32,000 bases of DNA from Candidatus Thorarchaeota archaeon (GTDB lineage: Archaea > Asgardarchaeota > Heimdallarchaeia > Hodarchaeales > Hodarchaeaceae): assembly GCA_048882505.1 (NCBI GenBank), contig JBHLRO010000025.1, positions 9,772-41,771 of the forward strand. The letters run 5' to 3'. This document shows positions 2,314 through 29,263 of this stretch, piece after piece. The notes below the pieces were generated by a model. That model had not been told where the DNA came from. It did not search any database and saw nothing but the letters and a program-made list of their open reading frames with translations. The position numbers were made by a program, and so were the translations under genes. Numbering within the stretch: the first letter of the stretch is position 1; each line of letters starts with the position of its first letter.

Positions 2314-3312
2314 CTATAGTGTGATTACATCCGCAACTTTTCCAACAGCGCTCACCCCAAGAATCTCAGTCTCGAATAGGGGAATTTCCGCTAGAACTAG
2401 ATTCCCGAGGTTTTTGTTGATATAATTCATGTAGGTCTCTTGCTGGTTGTAGGCATTCTTCAAATAATCTGTTGATGTTTCTTTTAAAACAATGTCCTTT
2501 GAAATTACCTTATTCACAATGACGCCACCTACTGGGATATCGAAAGAAGATACCATTCGAATGAATCTTTCTACTACAGCAATTGGCAGTGCTAAGGGAA
2601 GAGTTATAAAAAAGAAAGCTGTTTGGTTGGAATCCTTGAGAAGCATTTTTGCAGCCTCTGTCTTCTGTCTGGTTTTAAGTAGATCTGCCATTAGAGGATC
2701 TTTTTCAATTTCCTTCTTTATTCTATCCTTTCGAAAGCTGAGTTGTAACCGGATAGAAAGGGCCTCCTTTCTGGACTGGATCATCCTCCCAAGCCAGAGA
2801 TCATAGAGCTTAGACAATCCAATAAGTCGAATTGCGTTTGCTACAGCAGCGGTATCGAATACCATTACATCAAACTCGTCCTTTCTTTCGATCATCATGT
2901 TTGTCATTTGGTCAAATTGAGCGCTTTCTTCAAAACTGGGATTTGTAGTAGCAATTTCAACAAAAGATTCGGTTTTGACAGGGATATCAGCATATTTTAG
3001 GAAAAAATCAATTTTACGCTTTAGCTCTTTTTTATAATTTTCCACAGTGTCTGTAATATCAATCTCGCATGCCCAAACGTTGTCTAAGCCTTCCAACTTA
3101 GCTACTTTTCCCCTTGGAAGGCGTTGATCAAATAGACTGCTCAATGAGTGAACTGGATTAAGACTGGATAACAGAACGCGTTTTCCCTTTCTAGCGAAGT
3201 CCAATGCAATTGCAGCGGCACTGATTGTCTTACCAACACCTCCTTTTCCCCCTGTGAAAATGTACTTTAAGCTGGGTTTATTTTCTATGAAGGTTCTATA
3301 GGTTTGTGACAT
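2314..3312 (-). CDS. ArsA/GET3/TRC40-family single-domain ATPase with degenerate switch I/II
   Basis: Deviant Walker A 'GGKGGVGKT'. Switch I reads 'SLNPVHSL' (canonical STDPAH) and switch II reads 'FDTAAVANAIRL' (canonical DTAPTGHTLR). Confidence 0.9.
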   Translation of the reverse strand: MSQTYRTFIENKPSLKYIFTGGKGGVGKTISAAAIALDFARKGKRVLLSSLNPVHSLSSLFDQRLPRGKVAKLEGLDNVWACEIDITDTVENYKKELKRKIDFFLKYADIPVKTESFVEIATTNPSFEESAQFDQMTNMMIERKDEFDVMVFDTAAVANAIRLIGLSKLYDLWLGRMIQSRKEALSIRLQLSFRKDRIKKEIEKDPLMADLLKTRQKTEAAKMLLKDSNQTAFFFITLPLALPIAVVERFIRMVSSFDIPVGGVIVNKVISKDIVLKETSTDYLKNAYNQQETYMNYINKNLGNLVLAEIPLFETEILGVSAVGKVADVITL

Positions 3313-3332
3313 TTGACAGATCTCCTAGTTAA

Positions 3333-4355
3333 TCAATCAGGTCTTTCCCAGAGAAATAGATCCTCTGCGACCTTTGTCAGAAGTTCGATTCCCTTGGGTT
3401 CTCGGTCATACATAGGGATTACTGCCAATACCTTGTCACCAAATCGGTCAAATATCGTGTCGAGATGTCTTTGCTGCATCTTTATCTTGTTCTTTAGGAA
3501 GTCAGAAAGAGATTCATTTTCTAATAATTCCGAAGGATATACCTGGTTGACTAATACCCCTGAAATGTTTATTCCAAATTGCTCAAACATATTGATGGCA
3601 CGTTCTGTATCTAGAATTGCCATCTGCTCGGGAATTAGTACCATGAAGAAACCAGTACGATCTTCATTCTGTAGCATCGAACTGAAGAAGTTGAGTCTAT
3701 CCCGAATTTCAATGAGTTCCCCCATGATGGCATCTTCAGCCAAATCCTGCTTTGTTTTTCTCATAAATTTGGCAGCTACTTCCTCGTATTCCTCTGCCTT
3801 CTCTCTCATACCTGTAATCTTTTGAATCCAGCTGCTTAAAACATCTGCAGTAGATACGAAGCGAACTCCATGTCCAAAGGGAGGCATGTCAAATATGTAG
3901 AGTGTATATTTTCCCTCAGACACCAGAGAAACCATGGCATCATAAGTAGCCGATTCGTGCATCGCAGGTTCGGCTTTTGCGCTCTCTATGTAATCCTCTA
4001 TCTCCTCGGGGATCTCTTCGAGCTTGTATAAGTTAAAGATTTGTTGCCTCACGCTTTGTACATAATTCTCAATCTCCCTATCAGCATCGATTTCAGTCAC
4101 AAAGAGGTTCTCTGCGAGTTTGACCTCACCTTTTCCGAATACATCCTTCTCGAACACATCACTTAATGAGGCCTGAGGGTCTGTTGAGAAAACAAGAGTT
4201 TTTATTATTTTCTCTTTAGAGAAGTGAATGGAGGTGGCTGCACTGAGAGTGGTTTTCCCTAATCCTCCCTTTCCTGCAAATATAAGGGTTTGAATATCTT
4301 TTTTTTGGTCAAAAAATTCCGTATAGGTCGAGTATGTATCCTTCACAATTTTCAC
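3333..4355 (-). CDS. ArsA/GET3/TRC40-family single-domain ATPase
   Basis: 'AGKGGLGKTT', switch I 'STDPQASLSD', switch II 'FDMPPFGHGVR', 'VLVNQV'. The protein contains no Cys. Confidence 0.9.
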   Translation of the reverse strand: MKIVKDTYSTYTEFFDQKKDIQTLIFAGKGGLGKTTLSAATSIHFSKEKIIKTLVFSTDPQASLSDVFEKDVFGKGEVKLAENLFVTEIDADREIENYVQSVRQQIFNLYKLEEIPEEIEDYIESAKAEPAMHESATYDAMVSLVSEGKYTLYIFDMPPFGHGVRFVSTADVLSSWIQKITGMREKAEEYEEVAAKFMRKTKQDLAEDAIMGELIEIRDRLNFFSSMLQNEDRTGFFMVLIPEQMAILDTERAINMFEQFGINISGVLVNQVYPSELLENESLSDFLKNKIKMQQRHLDTIFDRFGDKVLAVIPMYDREPKGIELLTKVAEDLFLWERPD

Positions 4356-4396: not shown

Positions 4397-4705
4397 CTAG
4401 TAGAGAGCGTCAGTGAGATCCCTTTCTTTAAGCATCCTCCTTTTCCAAGTCTTGATCTGGGGCACAACGTAGGGCAAGATACGCAGTGAATAATATGGGG
4501 GCAAGATTGGGATACCCATAAGGTCACCAAGGGTGATCAGCATAAACATGTGTTCAAAGTACATCCTACTCTTTAGAGCCTGCCTGGACATTCCATGCAT
4601 CGCTGCTCCGTAGATAAGACGTTTAATAGAAGCTCTTAGCCCCTTAGCCTCACTCTCATTATCAGATTCATCATTATCGGACCTATTTTCTTCAATTCCA
4701 GACAT
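4397..4705 (-). CDS. Small CstA/ArsA-associated protein (CC-star-like family, lacking terminal Cys-Cys)
   Basis: 'HMFMLITLGDLMGIPILPPYYSLRILPYV...W.RRM' resembles the recalled consensus of small proteins encoded between cstA and arsA. First gene of the arsA-arsA operon. Confidence 0.65.
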   Translation of the reverse strand: MSGIEENRSDNDESDNESEAKGLRASIKRLIYGAAMHGMSRQALKSRMYFEHMFMLITLGDLMGIPILPPYYSLRILPYVVPQIKTWKRRMLKERDLTDALY

Positions 4706-8874: not shown

Positions 8875-9834
8875 ATGGCCGAAAGCTCATTGGAGTGGGT
8901 ATTTCCAGTAATTGCTACCGTGATATGGCTTCTATTCTTTGGAAGCGTGGTTGAACAATATCTTCGAAAGCGAAAAACCCATCAGCTTGTCTGGGGGATC
9001 GCTCTATTGATGGTGGTCGTGGTAATGGGAGCAGAGGCCTTGAGCTATTTTCTAGGCGAATGGAATCCATGGCTTTATCGAATCTATTATGTTCTAGCAG
9101 CTTTTCAGGTAACTATCCTAGGTACTGGAGTTATCTACTTATTACGCAGTAGAGAATTAATTAATGAGCAGAACACCTTCGGAGGACTTCTCATATTCGG
9201 AGGGATCTGGCTAGTATTCGGGATCCCGTTCACCTTCTTTGTCTCCCCCGTTTTCTTTGTTATAATTCTATTAGCTTTTCTATATATAGGATTGGCTTTG
9301 ATCTCTTTCTTCACGGAATGGAATACCAGTGGAACCCAGTTTGCGCATCTCTTCGCGTTGACTAATGTAGTTGTTTTCGGTGTTATGATGGTGAGCGCTT
9401 GGAGTTCACCCGTGGACGTGGAAATCCTGAAATCCCTACTCGGACATCAAATAGGGGGAGCTGGTTGGGAAGAATCAACTATTGTTCGGAGTTTTTCTCC
9501 CCTTCTAACAGTACCCGGAGCCTTTGCACTTATAGGAGGAGCCCTCTTTTCATATTTTAAGTTGCAACGTTATCTTAAATACAAAACAGGCCATTATAAT
9601 CCCAAAACTGGAGTTTTCAACCTTTTCTTGGCGGGCGGATCGCTACTACTAGCAACAAGCGGGGTGTTATTACGATTTGGACTTGCAGGCACGCTACTGC
9701 TATATACTGTAAACACCCTAGCAGTAATCCTGATGTATTTTGGATTTCTTGAGTCAGATAGCATCTCTATGCACAAATTGATAGAGGTGTTAACGTTCCA
9801 GTGGCTCCGTAGTTCCGAAACTCAGATTTCCTGA
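8875..9834 (+). CDS. Uncharacterised polytopic membrane protein (about 8-10 TM)
   Basis: Repeated hydrophobic segments. GGTGA SD-like sequence before the ATG. No soluble domain. Confidence 0.75.
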   Translation: MAESSLEWVFPVIATVIWLLFFGSVVEQYLRKRKTHQLVWGIALLMVVVVMGAEALSYFLGEWNPWLYRIYYVLAAFQVTILGTGVIYLLRSRELINEQNTFGGLLIFGGIWLVFGIPFTFFVSPVFFVIILLAFLYIGLALISFFTEWNTSGTQFAHLFALTNVVVFGVMMVSAWSSPVDVEILKSLLGHQIGGAGWEESTIVRSFSPLLTVPGAFALIGGALFSYFKLQRYLKYKTGHYNPKTGVFNLFLAGGSLLLATSGVLLRFGLAGTLLLYTVNTLAVILMYFGFLESDSISMHKLIEVLTFQWLRSSETQIS

Positions 9835-17722: not shown

Positions 17723-18979
17723 TTATTCAATCAAAGGAAAATGGCACGCTACCCAATGATTTGAACGCTGCTCTATGAGTTCTGGTTCATTTTCAATGCA
17801 TTTTGAAGGATCCACGATAGGACAACGAGGATGGAATCTGCAACCTGACGGAGGATTAATTGCATCTGGTACCTCCCCATGCGGCAAATCATATTTCTTT
17901 TCTCCAGGAATAGGTGTCGGAACTGCATCTATTAGGGCTCTCGTATACGGGTGGAGCGGATTTCTGAATATGGCCTCGACCTCTCCCATTTCAACGAGTT
18001 TTCCAACATACATTACCCCTATTCGGTCACCAAAATGCCTTGCTGTGGCCAGATCATGGGTTATAAAGAGAATTGAAAGATTATGTGCTAATTGGAGTGA
18101 TTTCAATGAGTCTAGAATACCTGCGCGTAAACTGACATCCAACATACTTGTAGGTTCATCAGCGATTATTAGCTCTGGATTCAATATTAATGCTCTCGCT
18201 ATGGAGGCTCGCTGCAGTTCACCGCCGCTAACTTCATGGGGAAATTTCGTATAATATTGTTGGGAAGGAGTTAAACCGATTTCTTCAAACACCTCCAGGA
18301 TGCCTGAATCAGCAATTTTTCTTCTACGAAACCAAGAATGATAGAAGTAGCTTCCCAAGGCGACAGTGAAAAGGGACACTCCAAAAAGAGCACTAAGGGT
18401 AACTATTGTCGAATCCTGAATAAAAAACACAAGCGTGAGAGCCAAAAGTGAAATTATACTACTTAAAATAAGAAAAAACTCCGAGTATACGGAGTTACGA
18501 TATCTCTTTCTGACCTCGGTGTCCGTAATCCTATTGTGAATTAATAAGGGATGAAGAACTGCATCCCCCAAACGCATACGTGGATTTAATGAGGAAAAAG
18601 GATTTTGAAAGACGACTTGAGATTTTATATTTCCTTTACGGGGTATTAACTCATTGTGTGTAATTTCATTGTTCTTCCACTTGAATTTTCCTGTTGTGGG
18701 AGTCTCTAAACCAACCAATATATTAGCAGTAGTCGTCTTTCCACATCCAGACTCACCAACCAAGCAGAAAATCTCTCCTTTATTGATTGAAAACGTGATA
18801 TCATCAACAGCTTTCACATATGTCTCTTGTCGAGTGAACAGTCTATCTAGAGTTCCATGCTCAACTGGAAAGTATTTTCTAAGGTTAGTTACTTCTATTA
18901 AAGTCTCCTTTTCTTTCTTATCAATAAGACCTGACATTGTCACTCCCTCACTATCTAAAATGGGATTCATAGGATTCAT
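17723..18979 (-). CDS. dppF: Oligopeptide/dipeptide ABC ATPase (OppF/DppF) with an internal two-TM insertion
   Basis: Walker A 'GESGCGKT', Q-loop 'VFQNP', signature 'VSGGELQR', Walker B 'IIADEP', H-loop 'ITHDL', C-terminal 'GCRFHPRC...C...ACH'. Hydrophobic insert at aa ~165-216. Confidence 0.92.
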   Translation of the reverse strand: MNPMNPILDSEGVTMSGLIDKKEKETLIEVTNLRKYFPVEHGTLDRLFTRQETYVKAVDDITFSINKGEIFCLVGESGCGKTTTANILVGLETPTTGKFKWKNNEITHNELIPRKGNIKSQVVFQNPFSSLNPRMRLGDAVLHPLLIHNRITDTEVRKRYRNSVYSEFFLILSSIISLLALTLVFFIQDSTIVTLSALFGVSLFTVALGSYFYHSWFRRRKIADSGILEVFEEIGLTPSQQYYTKFPHEVSGGELQRASIARALILNPELIIADEPTSMLDVSLRAGILDSLKSLQLAHNLSILFITHDLATARHFGDRIGVMYVGKLVEMGEVEAIFRNPLHPYTRALIDAVPTPIPGEKKYDLPHGEVPDAINPPSGCRFHPRCPIVDPSKCIENEPELIEQRSNHWVACHFPLIE

Positions 18980-19949
18980 GAAACATCAGACATTTGGCAA
19001 TATGTTGACTCTTTGACCCTATCATTATTAGCTCTGGGCTTTCTTTTCTGCAGACATCTTTTACAAAAGTGCACCGATCGGCAAAGGAACATCCTTTCGG
19101 GGGATTTCTTAGATCGGGAGGATGCCCGGGAATAAAACTAAGCTGCTTCTTTTCTTTCTCTTTGACATTGGGAATCGCCTTGATCAAGGCCTGTGTGTAA
19201 GGATGAGCTGGGCTTTCAAAGATAGTAAAGGTATCGCCTACCTCAACTATTTGACCGGCATACATTATGGCAACTCGATTTGTGATTTCCGCTACTACCC
19301 CCAAATCATGTGTAATGTAAATAACTGTCAATTTGTACTCTCTAATGATATCTTTTAGTAGCTGAAGGAGTCTTGCCTGAACCAAAACATCAAGTGCTGT
19401 GGTAGGTTCATCAGCAATAATCATTTTTGGATTCAAAATCAAGGTTAACGCTATTACAATTCGTTGTTGCATTCCGCCCGAAAATTGAAAGGGATTGTCT
19501 TTCAAGCGTGTGGGAGGGATTTCCAAACGGTGTAACAAAGATTTCACTTCTTCCCATTTTTCCTCAGTCCACAGCTCGTGTACTTTCAGAGTATCGATAA
19601 AATGATCTGAAACCTTCTGAAGAGGATTCAGGGCATTCTGAGAAGCCTGAAACACCATAGATATATCAGAACCACGAAGTTTTTCCATTTCCTCCTCGGA
19701 TAGCTGTACCAGATCTTTCTTATTATATAGAATTCTCCCTGAACGAATAACCCCGCCCTGAAGTAGGCCAAGGATTGAATAGCCCAGTGTGCTTTTTCCA
19801 CATCCAGATTCTCCCACCAGGCCTAAAACTTCTCCTTTGTCAATGGTGAGAGAGACATTATCTACCGCTCTCACATTTCCGTCAAGTGTGGGATATTCAA
19901 CGACCAGGTTCTGGATTTCCAATAACGGAGGTTTATCGCTATTTCGCAT
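18951..19949 (-). CDS. dppD: Oligopeptide/dipeptide ABC ATPase (OppD/DppD)
   Basis: 'GESGCGKS', 'FSGGMQQR', 'IIADEPTTALD', 'ITHDL', C-terminal Cys cluster 'GCSFADRC...C...C'. Start placed at ATG 19949 (track: 19997). Confidence 0.93.
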   Translation of the reverse strand: MRNSDKPPLLEIQNLVVEYPTLDGNVRAVDNVSLTIDKGEVLGLVGESGCGKSTLGYSILGLLQGGVIRSGRILYNKKDLVQLSEEEMEKLRGSDISMVFQASQNALNPLQKVSDHFIDTLKVHELWTEEKWEEVKSLLHRLEIPPTRLKDNPFQFSGGMQQRIVIALTLILNPKMIIADEPTTALDVLVQARLLQLLKDIIREYKLTVIYITHDLGVVAEITNRVAIMYAGQIVEVGDTFTIFESPAHPYTQALIKAIPNVKEKEKKQLSFIPGHPPDLRNPPKGCSFADRCTFVKDVCRKESPELIMIGSKSQHIAKCLMFHESYESHFR

Positions 19950-20889
19950 TATTTCGTCTACTGATGAGGGGATTGAACTTATCATTGAGTGCATCACCTA
20001 TAAGTGAAAAAGCAAAGGAGAGAACAAATATCATTAGCCCAGGGAAGAAAATCAGCCAAGGATAGGTGCGAACCCTTGAAAGAGATCTGTTTTCATATAC
20101 ATCATAACCCCAATCAGCTGTTGGAGGTTGTATACCGAGTCCTAGGAATGCTAAACCAGCATTTGTAAGAATTGCATCAGTCATATTGAAGGGAATGATC
20201 GCAATGGTAGAGGCCAAAATATTGGGAGTGATATATCTCAGCAAAATGGTTAACCTACCTGCTCCCATAGTTTTCGCAGCGTCAACGTAACCTTCTTTTT
20301 TTATTTGTAAAACTTGAGCCCGAACCACCCGAAAATACGTCGGAATGTAAACGACCGCAGTTGCAAAAGATACAGCGGCAACTGTTTTTAAGATACCGAA
20401 AGCAGCAAGGTAAATAGCGAAAACTATGGCAAATAATAAGGAAGGAAAAGAATAGATCGCATCTGCTATTAGAGTCAGTAGACGGTCCATTTTTCCCCCA
20501 AAGTATCCCGAAAGGACACCCAAAGGTATCCCAAATATATATGCCAGAATAGTTCCTGAAAACGCCATTAATAACGCTATTCTGGCCCCGTATATTACCC
20601 GTGCGAGTACATCGTAACCCAAGAGATTAGTTCCAAAAGGATGTTCTAAAGAAGGGGGGGCAAAACGTAAACTTGGAAACCGTTCATCGTAGGAATAAGG
20701 GGAAATGACATCTGCAAATAAGGCCATAACCAAAATCATAACAAAGAGAAATATCCCCAAAGTTAACGTTTTATTATATTTTATAGATCTAATAAGGCCG
20801 ATAAACGAGGATTTAACCGATAGACCTTGTTTTTTCGGTGTTAAAGGGGGAGTGACCAATTTTGTTTCACCAAAAAGATTTTCGATCAA
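19939..20889 (-). CDS. dppC: ABC transporter permease (DppC/OppC)
   Basis: 'PPSLEHPFGT..LGYDVLARVIYGARI', EAA loop 'YVDAAKTMGA', 'LAFLGLG', 'IGDALND'. Confidence 0.93.
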   Translation of the reverse strand: MIENLFGETKLVTPPLTPKKQGLSVKSSFIGLIRSIKYNKTLTLGIFLFVMILVMALFADVISPYSYDERFPSLRFAPPSLEHPFGTNLLGYDVLARVIYGARIALLMAFSGTILAYIFGIPLGVLSGYFGGKMDRLLTLIADAIYSFPSLLFAIVFAIYLAAFGILKTVAAVSFATAVVYIPTYFRVVRAQVLQIKKEGYVDAAKTMGAGRLTILLRYITPNILASTIAIIPFNMTDAILTNAGLAFLGLGIQPPTADWGYDVYENRSLSRVRTYPWLIFFPGLMIFVLSFAFSLIGDALNDKFNPLISRRNNAK

Positions 20890-22115
20890 TATGTTATTCT
20901 TGGATCAACTAGTGCATAGTAAATATCACTAATCAAGCTTAACAGACTTACAATAAGAACTGTGACAATTACTACGCCTTGGACTGCAGGATAGTCCTTT
21001 TCTGCAATTGCAAGAAACAAATATCTTCCTAAACCAGGTATATTGAACGTTGTTTCTGTTAGAATTGCACCAGCTAGCAATAGAGCAAACTGAAGACTTA
21101 TCAATCCGATCGTAGGTACCACCGCGTTTTTCAAAGTGTATCGATATATAACAGTTTTTTCGGGGATTCCACGTGATCGTGCGAAGTGAACGTAATCTTG
21201 CTCTAATTGAAAAATCATGTTTGTTCGAACTTGTCGTGCGATTACTGCAGCAATCAGCATTCCTAAAGCTAGACCAGGTAGAATCAGGTGAATGATTATA
21301 TCATAGGTTAAATCGGGGCGCCCACTTAATATGGTATCAATTATCCAAATATTTGTATAATGAGTGAATTCCCCGGTTGCTCCAGCGCTTATCGGGGATA
21401 GTGCGGGGAGAGGAAAAATCATAAACGAAATTATACCGATAACTATCACAAAAAATGAGACTCCAAATAGTTTGTTGGGTTGAACGGAAATACCAGCAAT
21501 CTTGGTTGTATCTCTCTTGTTAATAATCCTTAGAAAAACACCGACTAATAAACTGAAGACTCCCATTATTATGATTATTATAGCTATAGGGCGTAAAAGC
21601 GGACCTAGAAAGCCAGATCTTGAAAACATCATTTGAAGTAAAATTCCTACCAGGAATATAGGGATCGAATAATCACCTATTGTGTACAAGCGAATAGAGT
21701 GGTCCTCTGCTTTGTCTCTTTTAGCACCAGAAACACCACCTAATATAATCCCTAATGGCACACCTATCAAAGTTCCGAAAGTTCCCAACGTCAAAGTGAG
21801 GCCAAATGCCTGTTGAATTTCCGCGGTTACCAAACCATTTGTTCTGAAAGACGTTCCAAAATCAAATGTTACGGCACGAACCAAGAATTCAAAATACTGT
21901 TCATGTAGCGGTTTATTCAGCCCAAATCTCTCCGAAATAAGTTCTACTTGATCGGGTGTCAGTTTCGGATTCAAAACAAGAGCAGGATTTGCCCCAGGTA
22001 GTACACGTAACAAGAAGAAGACGATGGATATTAATAGCCAAATCATAGGAATAAGAAGCACTATCCTTGTAAAAATAAAGGAACGTAATGAGCCCAATTT
22101 TATCAGAATCTCCAA
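20886..22115 (-). CDS. dppB: ABC transporter permease (DppB/OppB) with an extra two-TM insertion
   Basis: 'RVLPGANP', 'GLNKPLHEQY', 'DFGTS', 'HLILP', EAA loop 'DYVHFARSRG', 'GLGRYL', 'DYPAVQG', 'DPRI'. Extra hydrophobic segment at aa ~166-234. Confidence 0.92.
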   Translation of the reverse strand: MEILIKLGSLRSFIFTRIVLLIPMIWLLISIVFFLLRVLPGANPALVLNPKLTPDQVELISERFGLNKPLHEQYFEFLVRAVTFDFGTSFRTNGLVTAEIQQAFGLTLTLGTFGTLIGVPLGIILGGVSGAKRDKAEDHSIRLYTIGDYSIPIFLVGILLQMMFSRSGFLGPLLRPIAIIIIIMGVFSLLVGVFLRIINKRDTTKIAGISVQPNKLFGVSFFVIVIGIISFMIFPLPALSPISAGATGEFTHYTNIWIIDTILSGRPDLTYDIIIHLILPGLALGMLIAAVIARQVRTNMIFQLEQDYVHFARSRGIPEKTVIYRYTLKNAVVPTIGLISLQFALLLAGAILTETTFNIPGLGRYLFLAIAEKDYPAVQGVVIVTVLIVSLLSLISDIYYALVDPRITY

Positions 22116-22320
22116 TTTGTCGTGATTAACCCAATGAAATTCGGTTGGAACGTGTTGGATGAAAGAAACTTTTGCTGATTAGCAAACTGATCATCTTAAA
22201 AATACATATTAGGGAACCCCGTCATCAGTATGAAGTTACGATGGTGTCAGATCCAGTACCATTGGTGTTTACAGATCCGAGTTTTAAGCCTATGTAGTAA
22301 TCAGTCTCACTTCGGCAGAT

Positions 22321-22334
22321 TATATAAAATTTGG
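22321..22334 (-). promoter_or_regulatory. Candidate BRE/TATA for an internal dppB promoter
   Basis: The minus strand reads CCAAATTTTATATA, between the SBP terminator and dppB. Confidence 0.3.
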
Positions 22335-22367
22335 TAGAAATGCAGATCGATGATTATATTTAGGTAT

Positions 22368-22408
22368 GAGAAGAAAAAAAAAAGAAGGAGGGATTGGAAG
22401 AAGAAAGA
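22368..22408 (-). terminator. T-rich terminator after the solute-binding protein gene
   Basis: Purine tract on the + strand (A10 at 22374-22383), which is a pyrimidine/T10 tract on the coding strand immediately after the stop at 22412. Confidence 0.55.
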
Positions 22409-22411
22409 TGT

Positions 22412-24067
22412 CTAATGCTTTCTTCTGGATCTGAGAAAGATCACAACGACCCCAATGGAAATGATTGCGACCAAAGTTGGGAGTGTTTCGAACCCTGGCG
22501 TTGGTGCTGCTGGTGCCACAATAGAGCTATAATGAACATTCTCCGAGGGTTCTAATAGTACACCTGTAACGCCTGGTTGCCATGCAGTAAATTGAGAGAG
22601 CATTGTAAATAGTGGAATTAGTGGAACATCTTGGGCCATCAGTTTTTGGGCATTTTCGGACGCTGTTTTTCTGTTTGCTGCATTTGAATCGGTCAGGATA
22701 GTATCAATGTAGTTGTCCATATTGGTATCAGAATAATTAACACCAAAGCTGACAGAACCCGAACCAAGGAAGGGATCTATATAGTTACTTGCGTCTGGGT
22801 AGTCAAACCACCATCCAAGGAGATAGAAGCCCATGGTTTTTCGCTGATCGAGATATTGGGTCCATTCTACGTTTTTAAGAGTTACATCGAAGAATCCTGT
22901 CGCCTCGAACTGATTTTTCAGCAATTGAGCAACTGAAGCTTCTGTATCCCCATAGTGTGTTGGAGTGTACCACATATCAAGAGCGAATTTATTGGTGTCT
23001 TTAACATAACCAGATTGAGTCATGTTTGCTGCTACGTAAGCTTGCGAAGGGCCGTCCATAAATGTATCTATGTGGCTAGTGAATATCTTTGGAACCATAC
23101 TAAATAGAGGTTCGTTGAAATTATCAAAGACCGTATCAACGATCTCGGTTCGATTAATTGCGGCAGCTAGTCCTCTTCTGACATTAATGTCGGTATACAT
23201 ATCCACGTTGATAAGCAGATACCTAATTCCTGCGGAGGACTTGGTGGCAAATTCCAAGTTATCATTTGCCATTACAGAAGCCATCTCATCAGGCCCAAAA
23301 ACACGATGGGCAACATCGATATCACCATTCTCGAGTGCAGTTAACATCGTGGAAGCATCGGTATAGAATTTTACGATTATTCTGTCGTTTTTAGGTGCGG
23401 TACCGAAGTAGTTTGGATTGGGGACCAAAATAAGTTCGACATCTTTTGTCCACGTATCAATCATATAGGGACCTAGTCCGGCCGGTAGCGTATCTGCAGA
23501 TCGTCCTGATAACTCGTCTGCGGGCAAAGAAATCGTACTAATGGGCCAAGCAACTGTATATACCAATCTTTGGAGAAAAGTAGCATCAGCAATGTTCAAG
23601 TAGATTTTGACATGCGTTTCGTCAACTACCTCGGTTTTGTTAACAACATCTGTCAGTAGAAAGGCAGGTTCTCCATCAGGTAGAGCTAGGACTCGATCAA
23701 TATTCCATTTCACAGCTGTTGCATTGAACGCTGTACCGTCACTGAATTTAATTCCCGTCTTTAACGTAAAAGTATATTCCTTGCCATCAGTGCTAATACT
23801 GTAATCTTCGATAATAGGCCCTTTCTGAGCATCGGTCGAATCCAATGGCATTTCCATTAGTCCATGCGTGATTTGGACGAGGACATTAGACGAAAAATAG
23901 TCGTAAGAGTCCGCTGGATCCAATTTAGTCACTGAATCTGTGGTCCCAATAACAACAGTTCCACCTTGCGCTTGTACGGGTAGAACAGGTGCCATTGCGA
24001 ATAATCCCACACAGAAGACTAAGACTATAAATATAGATAATCTTTTCCTGTTTTTCACAGTGTTCAC
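22412..24067 (-). CDS. dppA: Family 5 ABC solute-binding protein with signal peptide and C-terminal PGF-CTERM-like anchor
   Basis: N-terminal basic plus hydrophobic signal, 'LDPA', 'YTFTLK.GIKFSDGT.FNA..VKWNI.R', 'GLGPY', 'NPNY'. The C-terminus is 'PTPGFE' + TM + 'RSRRKH'. Confidence 0.92.
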   Translation of the reverse strand: MNTVKNRKRLSIFIVLVFCVGLFAMAPVLPVQAQGGTVVIGTTDSVTKLDPADSYDYFSSNVLVQITHGLMEMPLDSTDAQKGPIIEDYSISTDGKEYTFTLKTGIKFSDGTAFNATAVKWNIDRVLALPDGEPAFLLTDVVNKTEVVDETHVKIYLNIADATFLQRLVYTVAWPISTISLPADELSGRSADTLPAGLGPYMIDTWTKDVELILVPNPNYFGTAPKNDRIIVKFYTDASTMLTALENGDIDVAHRVFGPDEMASVMANDNLEFATKSSAGIRYLLINVDMYTDINVRRGLAAAINRTEIVDTVFDNFNEPLFSMVPKIFTSHIDTFMDGPSQAYVAANMTQSGYVKDTNKFALDMWYTPTHYGDTEASVAQLLKNQFEATGFFDVTLKNVEWTQYLDQRKTMGFYLLGWWFDYPDASNYIDPFLGSGSVSFGVNYSDTNMDNYIDTILTDSNAANRKTASENAQKLMAQDVPLIPLFTMLSQFTAWQPGVTGVLLEPSENVHYSSIVAPAAPTPGFETLPTLVAIISIGVVVIFLRSRRKH

Positions 24068-24498: not shown

Positions 24499-25005
24499 TC
24501 AGGTAGTCCATTTCGCTATTAGGGCTGGAAAATTTTCGGCAGCGCTTCGGCGTTTCCGCTGGTTAACTTTTTCTGCTTCAATATAAAGGAGTGCTTCAGG
24601 TTCGCAGGTTTTGACGCACTGAGGATCACCTCCACAGAGATCACATTTTATGACTTTCTTTTTTCCCCTTTCAGAGGTGATCGCGACCGCTCCAAATGGA
24701 CAGTCTCTGATACATAGTTTACAGTTTACACACAATTCGTAATCAATAACCAGCGCTTGGGTAATTTCGTCTCGAGATATCGCTTCCCGTTTGCGGCAGG
24801 CGTCCTGACAAGGTGCAGGGGTACACTGATGGCAGAAAATCGGAAGATAACCCCTATCGGCAGAAATTTTAAGGATATGGATTCGTGAAAGAGAGGGATT
24901 TATCACATTCTCATTATAAAGCGAACAAATAGATTCACAGAGGCGACAACCAGTACATTTCTCAGGTTCGACGAAAAGGATTTTTTGCATTCTTCTATTC
25001 ATCAT
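24499..25005 (-). CDS. 4Fe-4S dicluster electron-transfer subunit of AOR
   Basis: Four Cys groups: 'CTGCRLCESIC', 'CHQCTPAPCQDAC', 'CVNCKLCIRDCP', 'KCDLCGGDPQCVKTC'. Directly downstream of AOR. Confidence 0.9.
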   Translation of the reverse strand: MMNRRMQKILFVEPEKCTGCRLCESICSLYNENVINPSLSRIHILKISADRGYLPIFCHQCTPAPCQDACRKREAISRDEITQALVIDYELCVNCKLCIRDCPFGAVAITSERGKKKVIKCDLCGGDPQCVKTCEPEALLYIEAEKVNQRKRRSAAENFPALIAKWTT

Positions 25006-25032
25006 CTTCCTTTATGGGTAAATTTGGATTGA

Positions 25033-26952
25033 TTAGATTATGTAGGTTGGTTCTTGATCCAAAGAGAGCTGTTTCAGTGTGTTCGGTGTGGGAATTCCCT
25101 GATCATTCCATCCATGAAGTCCGTAATACTCATCAAGCATCGTGTTAAATTTCGAACGATCAATCACCTTGCCTTTCACGAGTGGAAATCCCAGCTGCGT
25201 AGGTTCAGTAAAAAACCTTTCAGGTAACGTATCGTCTCCCCTCGAGAACCCCTCTCGCAAATTAAAAAGCCTCTCGATTGTATAAATGCGTTCTCCAGCT
25301 TCCATTAACTGGGTTTTCGACAAATCAAGCCCTGCGGCGTATTTAAGCAATTTGGAAAACTCTTCCCATTTAGGAGAATTGACACTGAGAAACACTGTCT
25401 GGAATTTACAGATTCCCAAGGAATCTGTAATCGCATAGAGTAGTTCTTGCCACCATACCATGCGGCTTTTCCCCTCATAAGATGTGTAATCTGACGATAC
25501 AGGTCCCCCGTAAATTTCTTTTAGAAGATTCTCAGGCAATCCATATAGATCTATTGCTGGCCTACTACGGAGGTGGTCAGCTCCCCGTGTGGCTGTCGCA
25601 ATTCCCAGTGCAAAACTCGGTGTCGGACGTTCATCACTGTGCAAACTACTTAGTCCCTTGACCTGGATTGCGTAACGATCTGAATTTTGACCTATTTCCT
25701 TGATTGCGGAAGGAAAACCTTTAGCCAAGACATCTCCCAGACCTTCTCGGTATGCGATTCGGCGGATCATCTCAAGCATGGCTTCCTCATTTCCCCAAGT
25801 GAGTTCTATACCGTCTGCCATTTTTTTATTCAGTATTCCCTTTTCATAAAGTTCAAAAGCCCACGAAAGTATTCCCCCAGTTTCAAGGGTATCCAAACCA
25901 TACTGATTTACAAGATGATTTGCCACTAGGACTGTATCAAGTTGTTTTACATCCATCATTGTCCCAAACGCCCCCAGAGAGGTATATTCTGGCCCCTCAC
26001 CTTTGATTATACCGTATCCCTTCCTTTCTACTGAGTAGCGATGTCTGCAGGCGATCTGACATCCATAACAGGCTGTCATCCCAGTGGTGAATTTATCCAT
26101 ATTTTCTGGTTCAAGATCCTCTCCGTCTTCAAGCTTATTCAGCTGGAAGTTTTTTGTCCTGATGAGGCCGGTTGTGTTGGTATTGCTGTAAATAATCATG
26201 GTACCCCATCGTGATTGCGCACGAGCCCATCGTGAGTTCATGACTTTCTCATTCATTTCGGTACAATATTTGAGGAGTTCCTTGGGGTGAACAAATTCAA
26301 CACTGTTCGTTCCTCTAGCAGCTATCGCCTTAAGGTTCTTAGAACCCATTACTGCCCCCATCCCTGTTCTTCCAGCTGCGCTTTTCATTCCCGTTCTTAC
26401 GTTCGCAAATCGGACTTTATTCTCCCCAGCGACACCGATTACTAGAGCCTGGATTTCCTCATCTTCATTCTCCGTACGGATTTTATTTTGGGCTTCAAAG
26501 GTATCCATTCCCCACAGGTGGGCAGCATCTCTTAACTCGATTTCTCCATCATTCAAGAAAACATATCGTGGACTATTCGCTTTTCCTCGAATAACCAGGT
26601 GATCAAATCCCGCAAACTTCATTTCGGGTCCGAAAAATCCTCCTATACTAGAGTCTCCAATTCCCCCTGTGATCGGGGATTTTGCAGAAATTTGACTTCG
26701 GCCTGCGCCCAAGGCTGGAATACCCGTAAGCAGTCCAGCACCAACCAAAAGCACATTTTCAGGTCCCAATGGATCTATTTTGGGAGGTAGATGATTGTAA
26801 AGAAGGTACATATTGATCCCCCGTCCACCTACATACTTTTTTCGGATCCCTTTAGGGATTTGACCTATTGAAATCTTCTCCGTGGATAGGTCAATATAAG
26901 CAATTTTACGGTTCCAGACCATTAATCCACCTCGATAGTCATTCTCAATCAT
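25033..26952 (-). CDS. aor: Tungsten-dependent aldehyde:ferredoxin oxidoreductase family protein (AOR/WOR)
   Basis: 'KSPITG', 'GFDHLVI.G', 'AAGRTGMGAVMGSKNLKAI', 'CYGCQIAC', 'EGPEY', 'GLDT', 'RGADH', 'GICKF', 'DDTLPERF', 'YY..HGW'. An alternative start at ATG 26922 has a GAGGTG SD. Confidence 0.93.
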   Translation of the reverse strand: MIENDYRGGLMVWNRKIAYIDLSTEKISIGQIPKGIRKKYVGGRGINMYLLYNHLPPKIDPLGPENVLLVGAGLLTGIPALGAGRSQISAKSPITGGIGDSSIGGFFGPEMKFAGFDHLVIRGKANSPRYVFLNDGEIELRDAAHLWGMDTFEAQNKIRTENEDEEIQALVIGVAGENKVRFANVRTGMKSAAGRTGMGAVMGSKNLKAIAARGTNSVEFVHPKELLKYCTEMNEKVMNSRWARAQSRWGTMIIYSNTNTTGLIRTKNFQLNKLEDGEDLEPENMDKFTTGMTACYGCQIACRHRYSVERKGYGIIKGEGPEYTSLGAFGTMMDVKQLDTVLVANHLVNQYGLDTLETGGILSWAFELYEKGILNKKMADGIELTWGNEEAMLEMIRRIAYREGLGDVLAKGFPSAIKEIGQNSDRYAIQVKGLSSLHSDERPTPSFALGIATATRGADHLRSRPAIDLYGLPENLLKEIYGGPVSSDYTSYEGKSRMVWWQELLYAITDSLGICKFQTVFLSVNSPKWEEFSKLLKYAAGLDLSKTQLMEAGERIYTIERLFNLREGFSRGDDTLPERFFTEPTQLGFPLVKGKVIDRSKFNTMLDEYYGLHGWNDQGIPTPNTLKQLSLDQEPTYII

Positions 26953-27490: not shown

Positions 27491-29263
27491 CTAAGTCCGA
27501 ATATGGCGGTCATAGTTAAGAATATAGGTGAGCTCTGGTTCGGTTAACCCATAAATCTTCGCCAAAAATCTATCAACTCGGTCCAATAGAAACCTACTTT
27601 TGGACGATTTAAACTCCCCCACTCGCCCGCGGTTAGGATCGAAAACCGCCAATTGAATGTCATTCACATTTTTGGCGAGTCTAAGTATCCTTAATTTATT
27701 GCATTCCAAAGTTTTTTCTTCTGGAAAGGGAAATGGAGTTATTAGAGACCTTGGTAAGTCACGATTATTTCCAAAAGCCGTCCAGAAAAGATAATATAGC
27801 GAGGAATTGAGGATAAGTAGACCAAAATCACGTTGAACTTCTGTTATAAATCCAAGCTGCTTTATCTTAGTACTACGATACGGAAACTCGTGTAATGCAT
27901 GAATGAAGTAGCCTGCAGATTGACGATATTCCAATATGTGCCTTCCAGGACTCATAACATCTCCAAACACCCGAAATTTAGCTGAAAAATCCCTCAAAGT
28001 CATCAAAATATGTCGTTTCACCTTGTGTCCGATTTTGGGCAGCCGCGTCCGCTTATCTCCTGCGCATGACCCGAGTGTTTTTCCTAAACACAATCCTTCG
28101 GTTGATTCATAAGTAATATCGTGAAAGATGGAAGCACGTTGTCCATATGTAAAGCGATGATTAGTACTTGTTCGAATTGGGACTGACGGACCTTTCTCCC
28201 CGATAACAAGAACCACGCGTTCTTCATTGTCAGGGAATAATCGGGAAGGTCGGGTCCCAAAATAAGCCAGGTTAAATTTTCCCGCAGTTCTCATAAGAGT
28301 TCGAACCGAAGTCATTGAGCGGTTGGTAGCTACTGCTCCAGCTAGGATATTACCGATATTGCCGTTCTCTTTCAAGAGATCAAGTTCTCTCTCTAGAAAG
28401 TAACCACAGATATCGCCACAGCCAGCTACCTTATACTTCTCCAAAAAGCCATTGTGATTGCTTTTCATCTTTCTTGGGTTACCAAATGGAGGATTACCGA
28501 TAATTATGTCGAATCCACCTCCCTGATCTTTAAAAACTTCAGGAAAAGCCTCAAACCAATGAAATCCTTGATAGCTGACAATCTGATCTCCATAATGCTC
28601 CTGTTTGTCTATGTCTCTCTCAAAAATATGTCCACACAAGGAATTTCCCACCCGTAGGTTGTCTGTGAGAGACAATTTGATCCAATCAGTTCTCAGGTGC
28701 TCCGAATCATTTATCCATAATTTTAGCCGCAACCTAGCGTAATCTATCGCTTTAGAATTAAAATCAACCCCATATAGATTCTTGGTGACAATTTGGTTTT
28801 TGATTTGAGTTGGTTTGATGGCTAAATTAAGTTCTTTAACGCTCAAATCCCAGATGTCGTATAAAACGTCGGCCGCCGCTATTAAAAACGCACCTGATCC
28901 ACAGGCATTATCACAAACCCTTATTTGGCCAACACATTCTTCCAAAATGGTTATCATAGTTTCGATTGAAGCTTTGGTAAAAAGATCAGGTATATTTTGA
29001 AGAATATTGACATCTGTGATCTTATTCTTAAGAAAAATTTTGTTTGCTTGTTTCAGAATCCACGAATAAATCGTATTCTTGGCTATATAATCTGTAACGT
29101 CGCGGGGAGTGTAGTAAGTACCCGAATTTTTCCGGTCAACATCAGTCATGAACTCTTCAGGAAGCTTCGCAAGATAGTTATCTAGTTCACGATGAGCATC
29201 CTTTCCCTTAAATTCAAAACCACGGTCAGGTAGCAAATATTTCACCGGTTCATTACATTTCAT
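27491..29263 (-). CDS. Eco57I/type IIL-like N6-adenine DNA methyltransferase with TRD, no obvious nuclease domain
   Basis: 'SGTYYTP', motif I 'VCDNACGSGAFL', 'NLYGVD', 'NLRVGNSL', 'FHW...FPEVF', motif IV 'FDIIIGNPPF'. C-terminal TRD-like region 'LILNSSL', 'IYGLT'. Confidence 0.88.
   Translation of the reverse strand: MKCNEPVKYLLPDRGFEFKGKDAHRELDNYLAKLPEEFMTDVDRKNSGTYYTPRDVTDYIAKNTIYSWILKQANKIFLKNKITDVNILQNIPDLFTKASIETMITILEECVGQIRVCDNACGSGAFLIAAADVLYDIWDLSVKELNLAIKPTQIKNQIVTKNLYGVDFNSKAIDYARLRLKLWINDSEHLRTDWIKLSLTDNLRVGNSLCGHIFERDIDKQEHYGDQIVSYQGFHWFEAFPEVFKDQGGGFDIIIGNPPFGNPRKMKSNHNGFLEKYKVAGCGDICGYFLERELDLLKENGNIGNILAGAVATNRSMTSVRTLMRTAGKFNLAYFGTRPSRLFPDNEERVVLVIGEKGPSVPIRTSTNHRFTYGQRASIFHDITYESTEGLCLGKTLGSCAGDKRTRLPKIGHKVKRHILMTLRDFSAKFRVFGDVMSPGRHILEYRQSAGYFIHALHEFPYRSTKIKQLGFITEVQRDFGLLILNSSLYYLFWTAFGNNRDLPRSLITPFPFPEEKTLECNKLRILRLAKNVNDIQLAVFDPNRGRVGEFKSSKSRFLLDRVDRFLAKIYGLTEPELTYILNYDRHIRT

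Follow-up and report, generated by a model that had tools for sequence, protein, structure and literature searches.

A probable asymmetric heterodimer of Get3/ArsA-family ATPases, with Asn at one catalytic position, encoded in a CstA-associated operon of a Candidatus Thorarchaeota archaeon

In ATPases with the deviant Walker A motif, a signature Lys of one subunit reaches into the nucleotide site of its partner. Among the described systems of this kind, Get3/TRC40, which targets tail-anchored proteins, is a symmetric homodimer with a catalytic Asp in both sites, a CxxC zinc clasp that joins the subunits at their interface, a hydrophobic client groove in the helical subdomain for a transmembrane segment, and a Get1/Get2-type membrane receptor or insertase as its partner. 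Escherichia coli ArsA combines two homologous halves (A1–A2) with non-equivalent nucleotide sites in one unit; it is a single polypeptide of about 580 amino acids (aa), has the Asp in both halves and a metalloid site made of Cys113, Cys172 and Cys422, and is encoded in an ars operon. The mycobacterial BagAB proteins (Rv3679/Rv3680; PDB 6BS3–6BS5) are the products of two adjacent, diverged Get3/ArsA-like genes, and were reportedly crystallised as a complex by Hu et al. in 2019. We analysed a stretch of 32,000 nucleotides from a Candidatus Thorarchaeota archaeon assigned by GTDB to the family Hodarchaeaceae (hereafter the window; GenBank assembly GCA_048882505.1, contig JBHLRO010000025.1, positions 9,772 to 41,771 of the forward strand), in which two adjacent minus-strand genes encode ATPases of this superfamily. 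One of the two proteins, designated the N subunit, has Asn at the catalytic position of switch I, while its neighbour, the D subunit, retains the Asp.

The closest description of such a locus is the genome comparison of Castillo and Saier (2010), who reported clusters of the type cstA-cstX-(cstY)-arsA and proposed that CstA draws its energy from the ArsA homologues, to which CstX would link it (PMC2963123). Their cluster 15 comprises single-domain ATPases of about 330 aa that occur in adjacent pairs of 25–31% identity, such as Par1/Par2 of Pyrobaculum arsenaticum (31%) and Sth1/Sth2 of Symbiobacterium thermophilum (25%), and that are linked to cstA and to a cstX gene for about 90 aa. The pair in the window has the same properties (332 and 340 aa, 28% identity, cstX and cstA nearby), and the Pyrobaculum loci fall in the D and N clades of the tree described below. 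According to a remark already made in that paper, the Asp in 'SXD' 'can be substituted only by N', but the D and N paralogues were not separated in it and neither a heterodimer nor a dead site was proposed (the word 'heterodimer' has no occurrence in the text). Although the module itself was catalogued in 2010, its reading as a heterodimer with one dead site is, as far as could be found, absent from the literature, in which we also found no later experimental test of the cstA-cstX-arsA module.

The cstX, D and N genes, all on the minus strand, form one operon of the CstA-associated module, and the ATPase pair probably works as a two-subunit motor tied via CstX to the CstA nutrient transporter. 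From the sequence features, conservation, gene linkage and duplication history presented here, we infer that D and N constitute an obligate Get3-like heterodimer with one live and one locked site, that its groove holds CstX, and that this complex is linked to CstA; to this reading as a whole we assign a probability of about 0.6.

The N subunit is encoded at positions 2314–3312 and the D subunit at 3333–4355 of the window, with an intergenic gap of 20 bases. Both proteins belong to the Get3/ArsA ATPase superfamily: the N subunit scored 188 bits against Pfam PF02374 (ArsA_ATPase, cut-off 24) and 200 bits against TIGR00345 (GET3_arsA_TRC40, cut-off 135), the D subunit scored 233 and 220 bits, respectively, again above both curated cut-offs, and the deviant Walker A motif GKGGxGK[ST] is present in each. 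Their best matches in the PDB are the archaeal Get3 structures 3UG6 (M. jannaschii) and 3ZQ6 (M. thermautotrophicus), with E-values of 1e-46 to 1e-57. An earlier note on this DNA, made from the letters alone, had reported that the 332-aa protein reads SLNPVHSL where the family has STDPAH, with an AAT codon at 3157–3159; reading the minus strand from position 3189 gives K G K R V L L S S L N P V H S L and confirms this, and in a HMMER alignment the residue in question, Asn52, lies under the Asp of STDPAH in 3UG6. The other motif assignments of the note proved equally correct. Switch II of the N subunit (residues 153–159, positions 2836–2856) is DTAAVAN instead of the consensus DTAPTGH, beside an intact Walker A motif GGKGGVGKT (3226–3252) that includes the signature Lys23. 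The D subunit keeps the STDP and Gly-His elements, as STDPQAS at 4167–4187 (Asp59 at 4179–4181) and DMPPFGH at 3870–3890, in the latter of which TAPT is lost, and its P-loop reads GKGGLGKT.

In Get3, the D57N variant 'allows ATP binding without subsequent hydrolysis' and keeps the dimer trapped in its closed form (PMC12506534); the earlier note had called D-to-N at this position the standard laboratory mutation that blocks hydrolysis. Conservation of the Asn was assessed in 48 loci of this subfamily obtained from a scan of species-representative genomes and covering about 15 phyla of Bacteria and Archaea; motifs were counted on an alignment that included the window and held 49 N-type and 48 D-type genes. 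Bathyarchaeia, Caldarchaeales, Pyrobaculum, Methanoperedens, Chloroflexota and Bacillota are represented in the set, as are Acidobacteriota, Gemmatimonadota, Actinomycetota, Myxococcota, Thermodesulfobacteriota and Burkholderiales. At the switch I position, all 49 N-type genes encode Asn and all 48 D-type genes encode Asp, so that the check proposed in the earlier note, conservation of Asn in one paralogue of every pair, came out positive. Among the database homologues listed for the 332-aa protein (53–100% identity), SLNP[VI]HSL and D[CT]AAVAN were found in 120 out of 120, from Bathyarchaeia, Baldrarchaeia, Thorarchaeota, Hodarchaeota, Thermofilum and Bacillota, among others; with the 49 of 49 above, this invariance goes well beyond chance. 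The best named homologue, with 82% identity, belongs to 'Candidatus Heimdallarchaeota archaeon B3_Heim', the organism being a Heimdallarchaeota-like member of the Asgard archaea, and N-type members make up at least thousands of database clusters. A private mutation or an assembly error, which the note had given as a refuting case, is excluded, because the Asn is fixed in 49 of 49 genes and the pairs are always adjacent on one strand.

The P-loop Lys, the Walker B Asp (Asp153 in the N subunit) and the adenine-contacting (A-loop) Asn (Asn267 in the N subunit) are each invariant in the 49 N-type and the 48 D-type genes, and the signature Lys is present in 49/49 and 46/48, respectively. In switch II, all D-type genes keep Gly-His (48/48), while the N-type genes have Ala for Gly without exception (49/49) and Asn for His in 46 of 49, the His being kept in the other three. 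The mean identity is 60% among N-type and 61% among D-type proteins, which gives no sign of relaxation of the N pocket. Judged from these alignments, the pocket around the Asn is under strong purifying selection.

The two paralogues have travelled together. Each N-type gene of the locus set lies directly downstream of its Asp-bearing D-type partner (48/48), with gaps of a few bases and frequent 4-base overlaps, and the order cstX, D, N on one strand holds in all 48 loci as far as the length of the contigs permits a reading. Of 121 Asgard genomes sampled, nine have an N-type gene, and in all nine a D-type gene lies about 1 kb upstream, the motifs being the same; the distribution is patchy, with 8 of 44 genera and, in the genus to which the window belongs, two of four genomes. 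A maximum-likelihood tree recovered an N clade, a D clade and a joint D+N clade, in which the two window proteins take the corresponding places, each with 99% support in the Shimodaira–Hasegawa-like approximate likelihood ratio test (SH-aLRT); archaeal Get3 is the sister group of D+N. The branching within the D clade mirrors that within the N clade, and pairwise identities across loci correlate closely between D and N (r = 0.97), which together point to one ancient duplication followed by co-inheritance of both genes.

Loci with only one ATPase provide a comparison. The same scan revealed 17 loci in which a single ArsA homologue is encoded beside a diverged CstX-like gene, cstA, or both. All 17 retain STD[PT]AHS and the signature Lys, and most retain DTAPTGH; since the Asp is kept in every one of them, Asn is found only where an Asp-bearing partner is co-encoded. 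These modules represent a second, more diverged cstA/cstX kind (loci L059, L061, L063, L072–L076, L078, L082, L085 and others), and in the tree their ATPases branch outside the group that unites archaeal Get3 with D+N, although the rooting is unsure.

The distribution of the signature Lys fits a heterodimer as well. In two Burkholderiales D subunits (L040:4901–5989 and L042:4903–5955) this Lys is replaced by Gly, giving GGGGGVGKT, while the proteins are otherwise intact, with the switch I Asp and the switch II Gly-His kept. In a D–N dimer the invariant Lys of N would serve the Asp site, and the Lys of D, missing from these two proteins, would serve the Asn site. The two paralogues have also lost complementary parts of the canonical motifs: in D, the Asp and Gly-His are retained while the His of switch I and the TAPT of switch II are gone, whereas N, which lacks the Asp and Gly-His, still has the switch I His and, in most bacteria, DTAPT as well. 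Taken together, the pairing, the single-ATPase loci, the Lys pattern and the invariant nucleotide-binding residues of N support the proposal of the earlier note, an obligate asymmetric heterodimer with one active and one binding-only site, which is thus a probable arrangement with good support from comparison.

Compared with Get3/TRC40, the window pair shares the fold family and the deviant Walker A motif, and the model described below predicts a small hydrophobic protein in the groove of the helical subdomains. The pair differs in having diverged subunits, one of them with an Asn site, and no CxxC motif; the membrane protein linked to it is CstA. The CxxC zinc clasp was found in 0 of 48 D genes and 0 of 49 N genes; the window D subunit has no Cys at all and the N subunit has one, the family median being zero. 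The same genome encodes, apart from the pair, a fully canonical Get3 (G000:C18:39336–40247, L001), whose motifs are STDPAHS, DTAPTGH and, for zinc, CAYC; the earlier note had overlooked both this gene and the CstA-associated module. A conceptual analogy is offered by heterodimeric ABC (ATP-binding cassette) exporters, in which the consensus site hydrolyses ATP while the degenerate site holds it and keeps the dimer together; the logic is the one proposed here for D and N, although the ATPase fold is unrelated.

In four actinobacterial loci scoring above the BagA cut-off, BagA keeps GKGGTGKT but its switch I reads VEVEG, with Glu-Gly for Asp-Pro, whereas BagB has GAGGVGKT without the signature Lys and keeps the Asp in TIDPA. 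If cis and trans contributions are weighed as for D and N, BagB alone has a complete site, and a second lineage of the family appears to have reached a heterodimer with one consensus site by another route; genomes flagged as unpublished play no part in this comparison. The window proteins themselves are not BagAB, with best scores of 60.5 bits against a cut-off of 400 for BagA (NF053622) and 32 bits against 521 for BagB (NF053621), and no CstX-like open reading frame (ORF) was found within 1.5 kb of bagAB in six actinobacterial loci. BagAB has been linked to glycerol and nitric oxide tolerance (PMC10597346), whereas the window pair is linked to CstA.

The third gene of the operon, cstX (positions 4397–4705, minus strand), lies 41 bases upstream of the D gene and encodes a 102-aa protein, the 'CstX' of Castillo and Saier, with the highly conserved core PILPPYYSLR.LPYVVP...WKRR. 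It precedes the D gene in 44 of the 48 loci, which are all those with sufficient upstream sequence, and has 23 columns invariant across Bacteria and Archaea. The approximately 3600 database clusters of CstX are all unnamed and carry the precomputed tag PF25952; a Pfam scan of the window CstX with a model set without PF25952 gave no match. Its assignment to the NCBIfam family 'cory-CC-star' was rejected, the score of 33 bits being below the cut-off of 80 and a control Corynebacterium genome giving no match. Haloferax volcanii also matches 'cory-CC-star' below the cut-off, and this tractable archaeon may carry a CstX-like gene. In many loci (L008, L009, L011, L019–L042 and others) a second, more diverged CstX paralogue (57–100 bits) is found beside the first, while the window's genome has only one CstX.

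The cstA gene, for a permease of the carbon starvation protein A family, enters the window with its 3' part at positions 1–975 of the plus strand (130 bits against PF02554); the full gene (L095:8839–10746) encodes 635 aa and scores 323 bits. A distance of 1.3 kb separates its end from that of the N gene at position 2314. Across the locus set, 40 of 48 loci have cstA at most 6 kb from the pair, in most cases immediately upstream and in the same orientation. Directly upstream of cstA, just outside the window, is an ORF of 235 aa without a Pfam family (L095:7597–8304); weak homologues of it (26–29 bits) were found beside the module in L008, L009 and L011, and it may be the 'CstY' of Castillo and Saier.

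A complex of D, N and CstX was modelled and scored for CstX as the partner, with a result of 0.66, a mark reached by 58 of 80 solved complexes and by two of 110 mismatched pairs, against 0.01 for the best control; the control in which the D chain was replaced likewise gave 0.01. Runs agreed in at least 60% of contacts, and the predicted local distance difference test (pLDDT) value of CstX was at least 56. In the model, residues 43–102 of CstX contact residues 98–217 of D and 97–215 of N, that is, the helical subdomains of both chains, and the prediction supports, but does not show, binding of the CstX core across both of them. Four of the 15 fixed differences between D and N lie in the modelled groove (Y110/L105, Y122/F117, E129/N124 and M132/F127 in D/N order), and an asymmetric groove of this kind would suit one asymmetric ligand.

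In the mechanism that we propose, D and N would assemble into an obligate Get3-like heterodimer in which the D-subunit site, completed by Asp59 and by Lys23 from N, would hydrolyse ATP, while the N-subunit site with Asn52 would bind ATP and split none of it or only very slowly. The permanently occupied N site could replace the missing CxxC clasp and hold the dimer during cycling of the D site. With their helical subdomains, D and N would form an asymmetric groove that takes up the conserved hydrophobic core of one CstX, to be clamped and released by ATP turnover at the one live site. The motor would be linked to CstA by CstX, which would be either a client delivered next to the permease or a fixed adaptor through which transport is gated or energised. 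A tentative elaboration of low probability makes D/N a dedicated capture-and-release motor for a CstX hairpin, in which the ATP-bound N site would hold the clasp-less dimer together and turnover would pull CstX off CstA or hand it to CstA, so that ATP would switch a secondary transporter on or off. If this were true, it would be a prokaryotic capture of tail-anchor style used for regulation rather than targeting, with a natural D57N-trapped state in one subunit.

Several points weigh against the proposed heterodimer and its link to CstX and CstA. No biochemical data on any member were found in the literature, and no genuine D–N fusion was detected among the longer proteins searched. Three singleton 'fusions' (P0241–P0243) were not counted, their conserved blocks being broken by Arg/Gly/Pro-rich stretches typical of frameshifted calls from high-GC metagenomes. 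The loss of the signature Lys in D represents one evolutionary event in two related genomes and carries modest weight. The complex-model score concerns only CstX; moreover, the placement of CstX, the confidence of which is moderate, may partly reflect memory of solved Get3–client complexes. In the window, two ORFs lie between the operon and cstA, which runs towards it from the opposite strand, unlike the arrangement in most loci. Finally, Asn at the switch I position could still permit slow hydrolysis.

An unlikely alternative to the heterodimer is that the two proteins form homodimers with separate tasks, D2 cycling as an ATPase and N2 serving CstX as a chaperone or holdase that ATP locks permanently in the closed state. 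Dimers form readily among homologues of this family, homodimers of Get3 D57N are stable and closed (PMC12506534), and the model score covers CstX only; the strict one-to-one adjacency and the mirrored phylogenies of D and N, however, argue against this alternative, as does the loss of complementary halves of the canonical motifs in the two paralogues. The Burkholderiales D subunits bear on the same question, since a D homodimer without the signature Lys would be crippled at both sites, while a D–N heterodimer would lose only the degenerate one. In the model, too, CstX is in contact with both chains, and its placement does not survive replacement of D.

It appears quite unlikely that a D–N heterodimer hydrolyses ATP at both sites, with the water at the Asn52 site activated by another residue, possibly one of the partner. 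Asn is unable to serve as a general base, hydrolysis by Get3 is abolished in the D57N variant (PMC12506534), the N subunit has lost the Gly-His of switch II as well, and the Lys that would serve its site is dispensable in two genomes; these observations have to be set against the N pocket, which is as conserved as that of a working site, and against NosGet3d, which has Glu at the same position and still shows ATPase activity (PMC10248533). The opposite extreme, in which N is a pseudo-enzyme that binds no nucleotide and acts as a structural scaffold or adaptor, would account for the deviation of both its switch motifs from the family consensus, but is very improbable given the invariant P-loop, Asp153 and Asn267 in all 49 N-type genes and a mean identity among N proteins equal to that among D proteins. 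That the pair is an arsenite-pump ATPase split into two halves has next to no probability: the homologues are named 'arsenic transporter' or 'arsenite-transporting ATPase' and both proteins weakly match ArsA equivalog models, but the scores are 84–124 bits against cut-offs of 650–800 (TIGR04291, NF041417); the single long polypeptide, the Asp in both halves and, with no Cys in D and one in N, the three-Cys metalloid site of E. coli ArsA are absent, and no ars genes were recognised among window ORFs of at least 150 aa, where the neighbours are cstA, a peptide ABC transporter and genes of amino-acid catabolism.

For the heterodimer with one live and one locked site, the comparison across a family found in about 15 phyla yields predictions that can be checked: one site hydrolyses and the other is locked, the signature Lys matters in one direction only, and a small protein sits in the groove. 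If the reading is true, the pair would be a natural, stable version of the ATP-trapped Get3 state and, besides BagAB, a second, independently built heterodimer of the Get3/ArsA family. It would also give a first handle on the coupling of an ATPase to the CstA family of peptide/pyruvate permeases.

The wider neighbourhood of the pair includes an operon for a peptide ABC transporter of the Opp/Dpp type (17723–24067, minus strand) and an aldehyde:ferredoxin oxidoreductase with its ferredoxin (24499–26952, minus strand), and the rest of the window also encodes aminotransferases and acyl-CoA enzymes. This gene content suggests a neighbourhood of peptide and amino-acid fermentation, and together with the lack of recognised ars genes among ORFs of at least 150 aa it agrees with a role in the uptake of nutrients rather than in resistance to arsenic. 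In the interval from cstA to the ATPase pair, on the plus strand, are a gene for a DUF2148 protein with a ferredoxin domain (1199–1798) and an ORF of 117 aa without a Pfam family (1820–2173). A DUF2148 homologue (138 bits) was also found beside the module in an Anaerolineae locus (L009:7695–8204) and in none of the other 47 loci. Farther away, the window contains a 319-aa multi-pass membrane ORF without a Pfam family (8875–9834, plus strand) and a protein with an Eco57I/MmeI-type DNA methyltransferase domain (27491–29263, minus strand), possibly a restriction-modification enzyme of type IIG/IIL.

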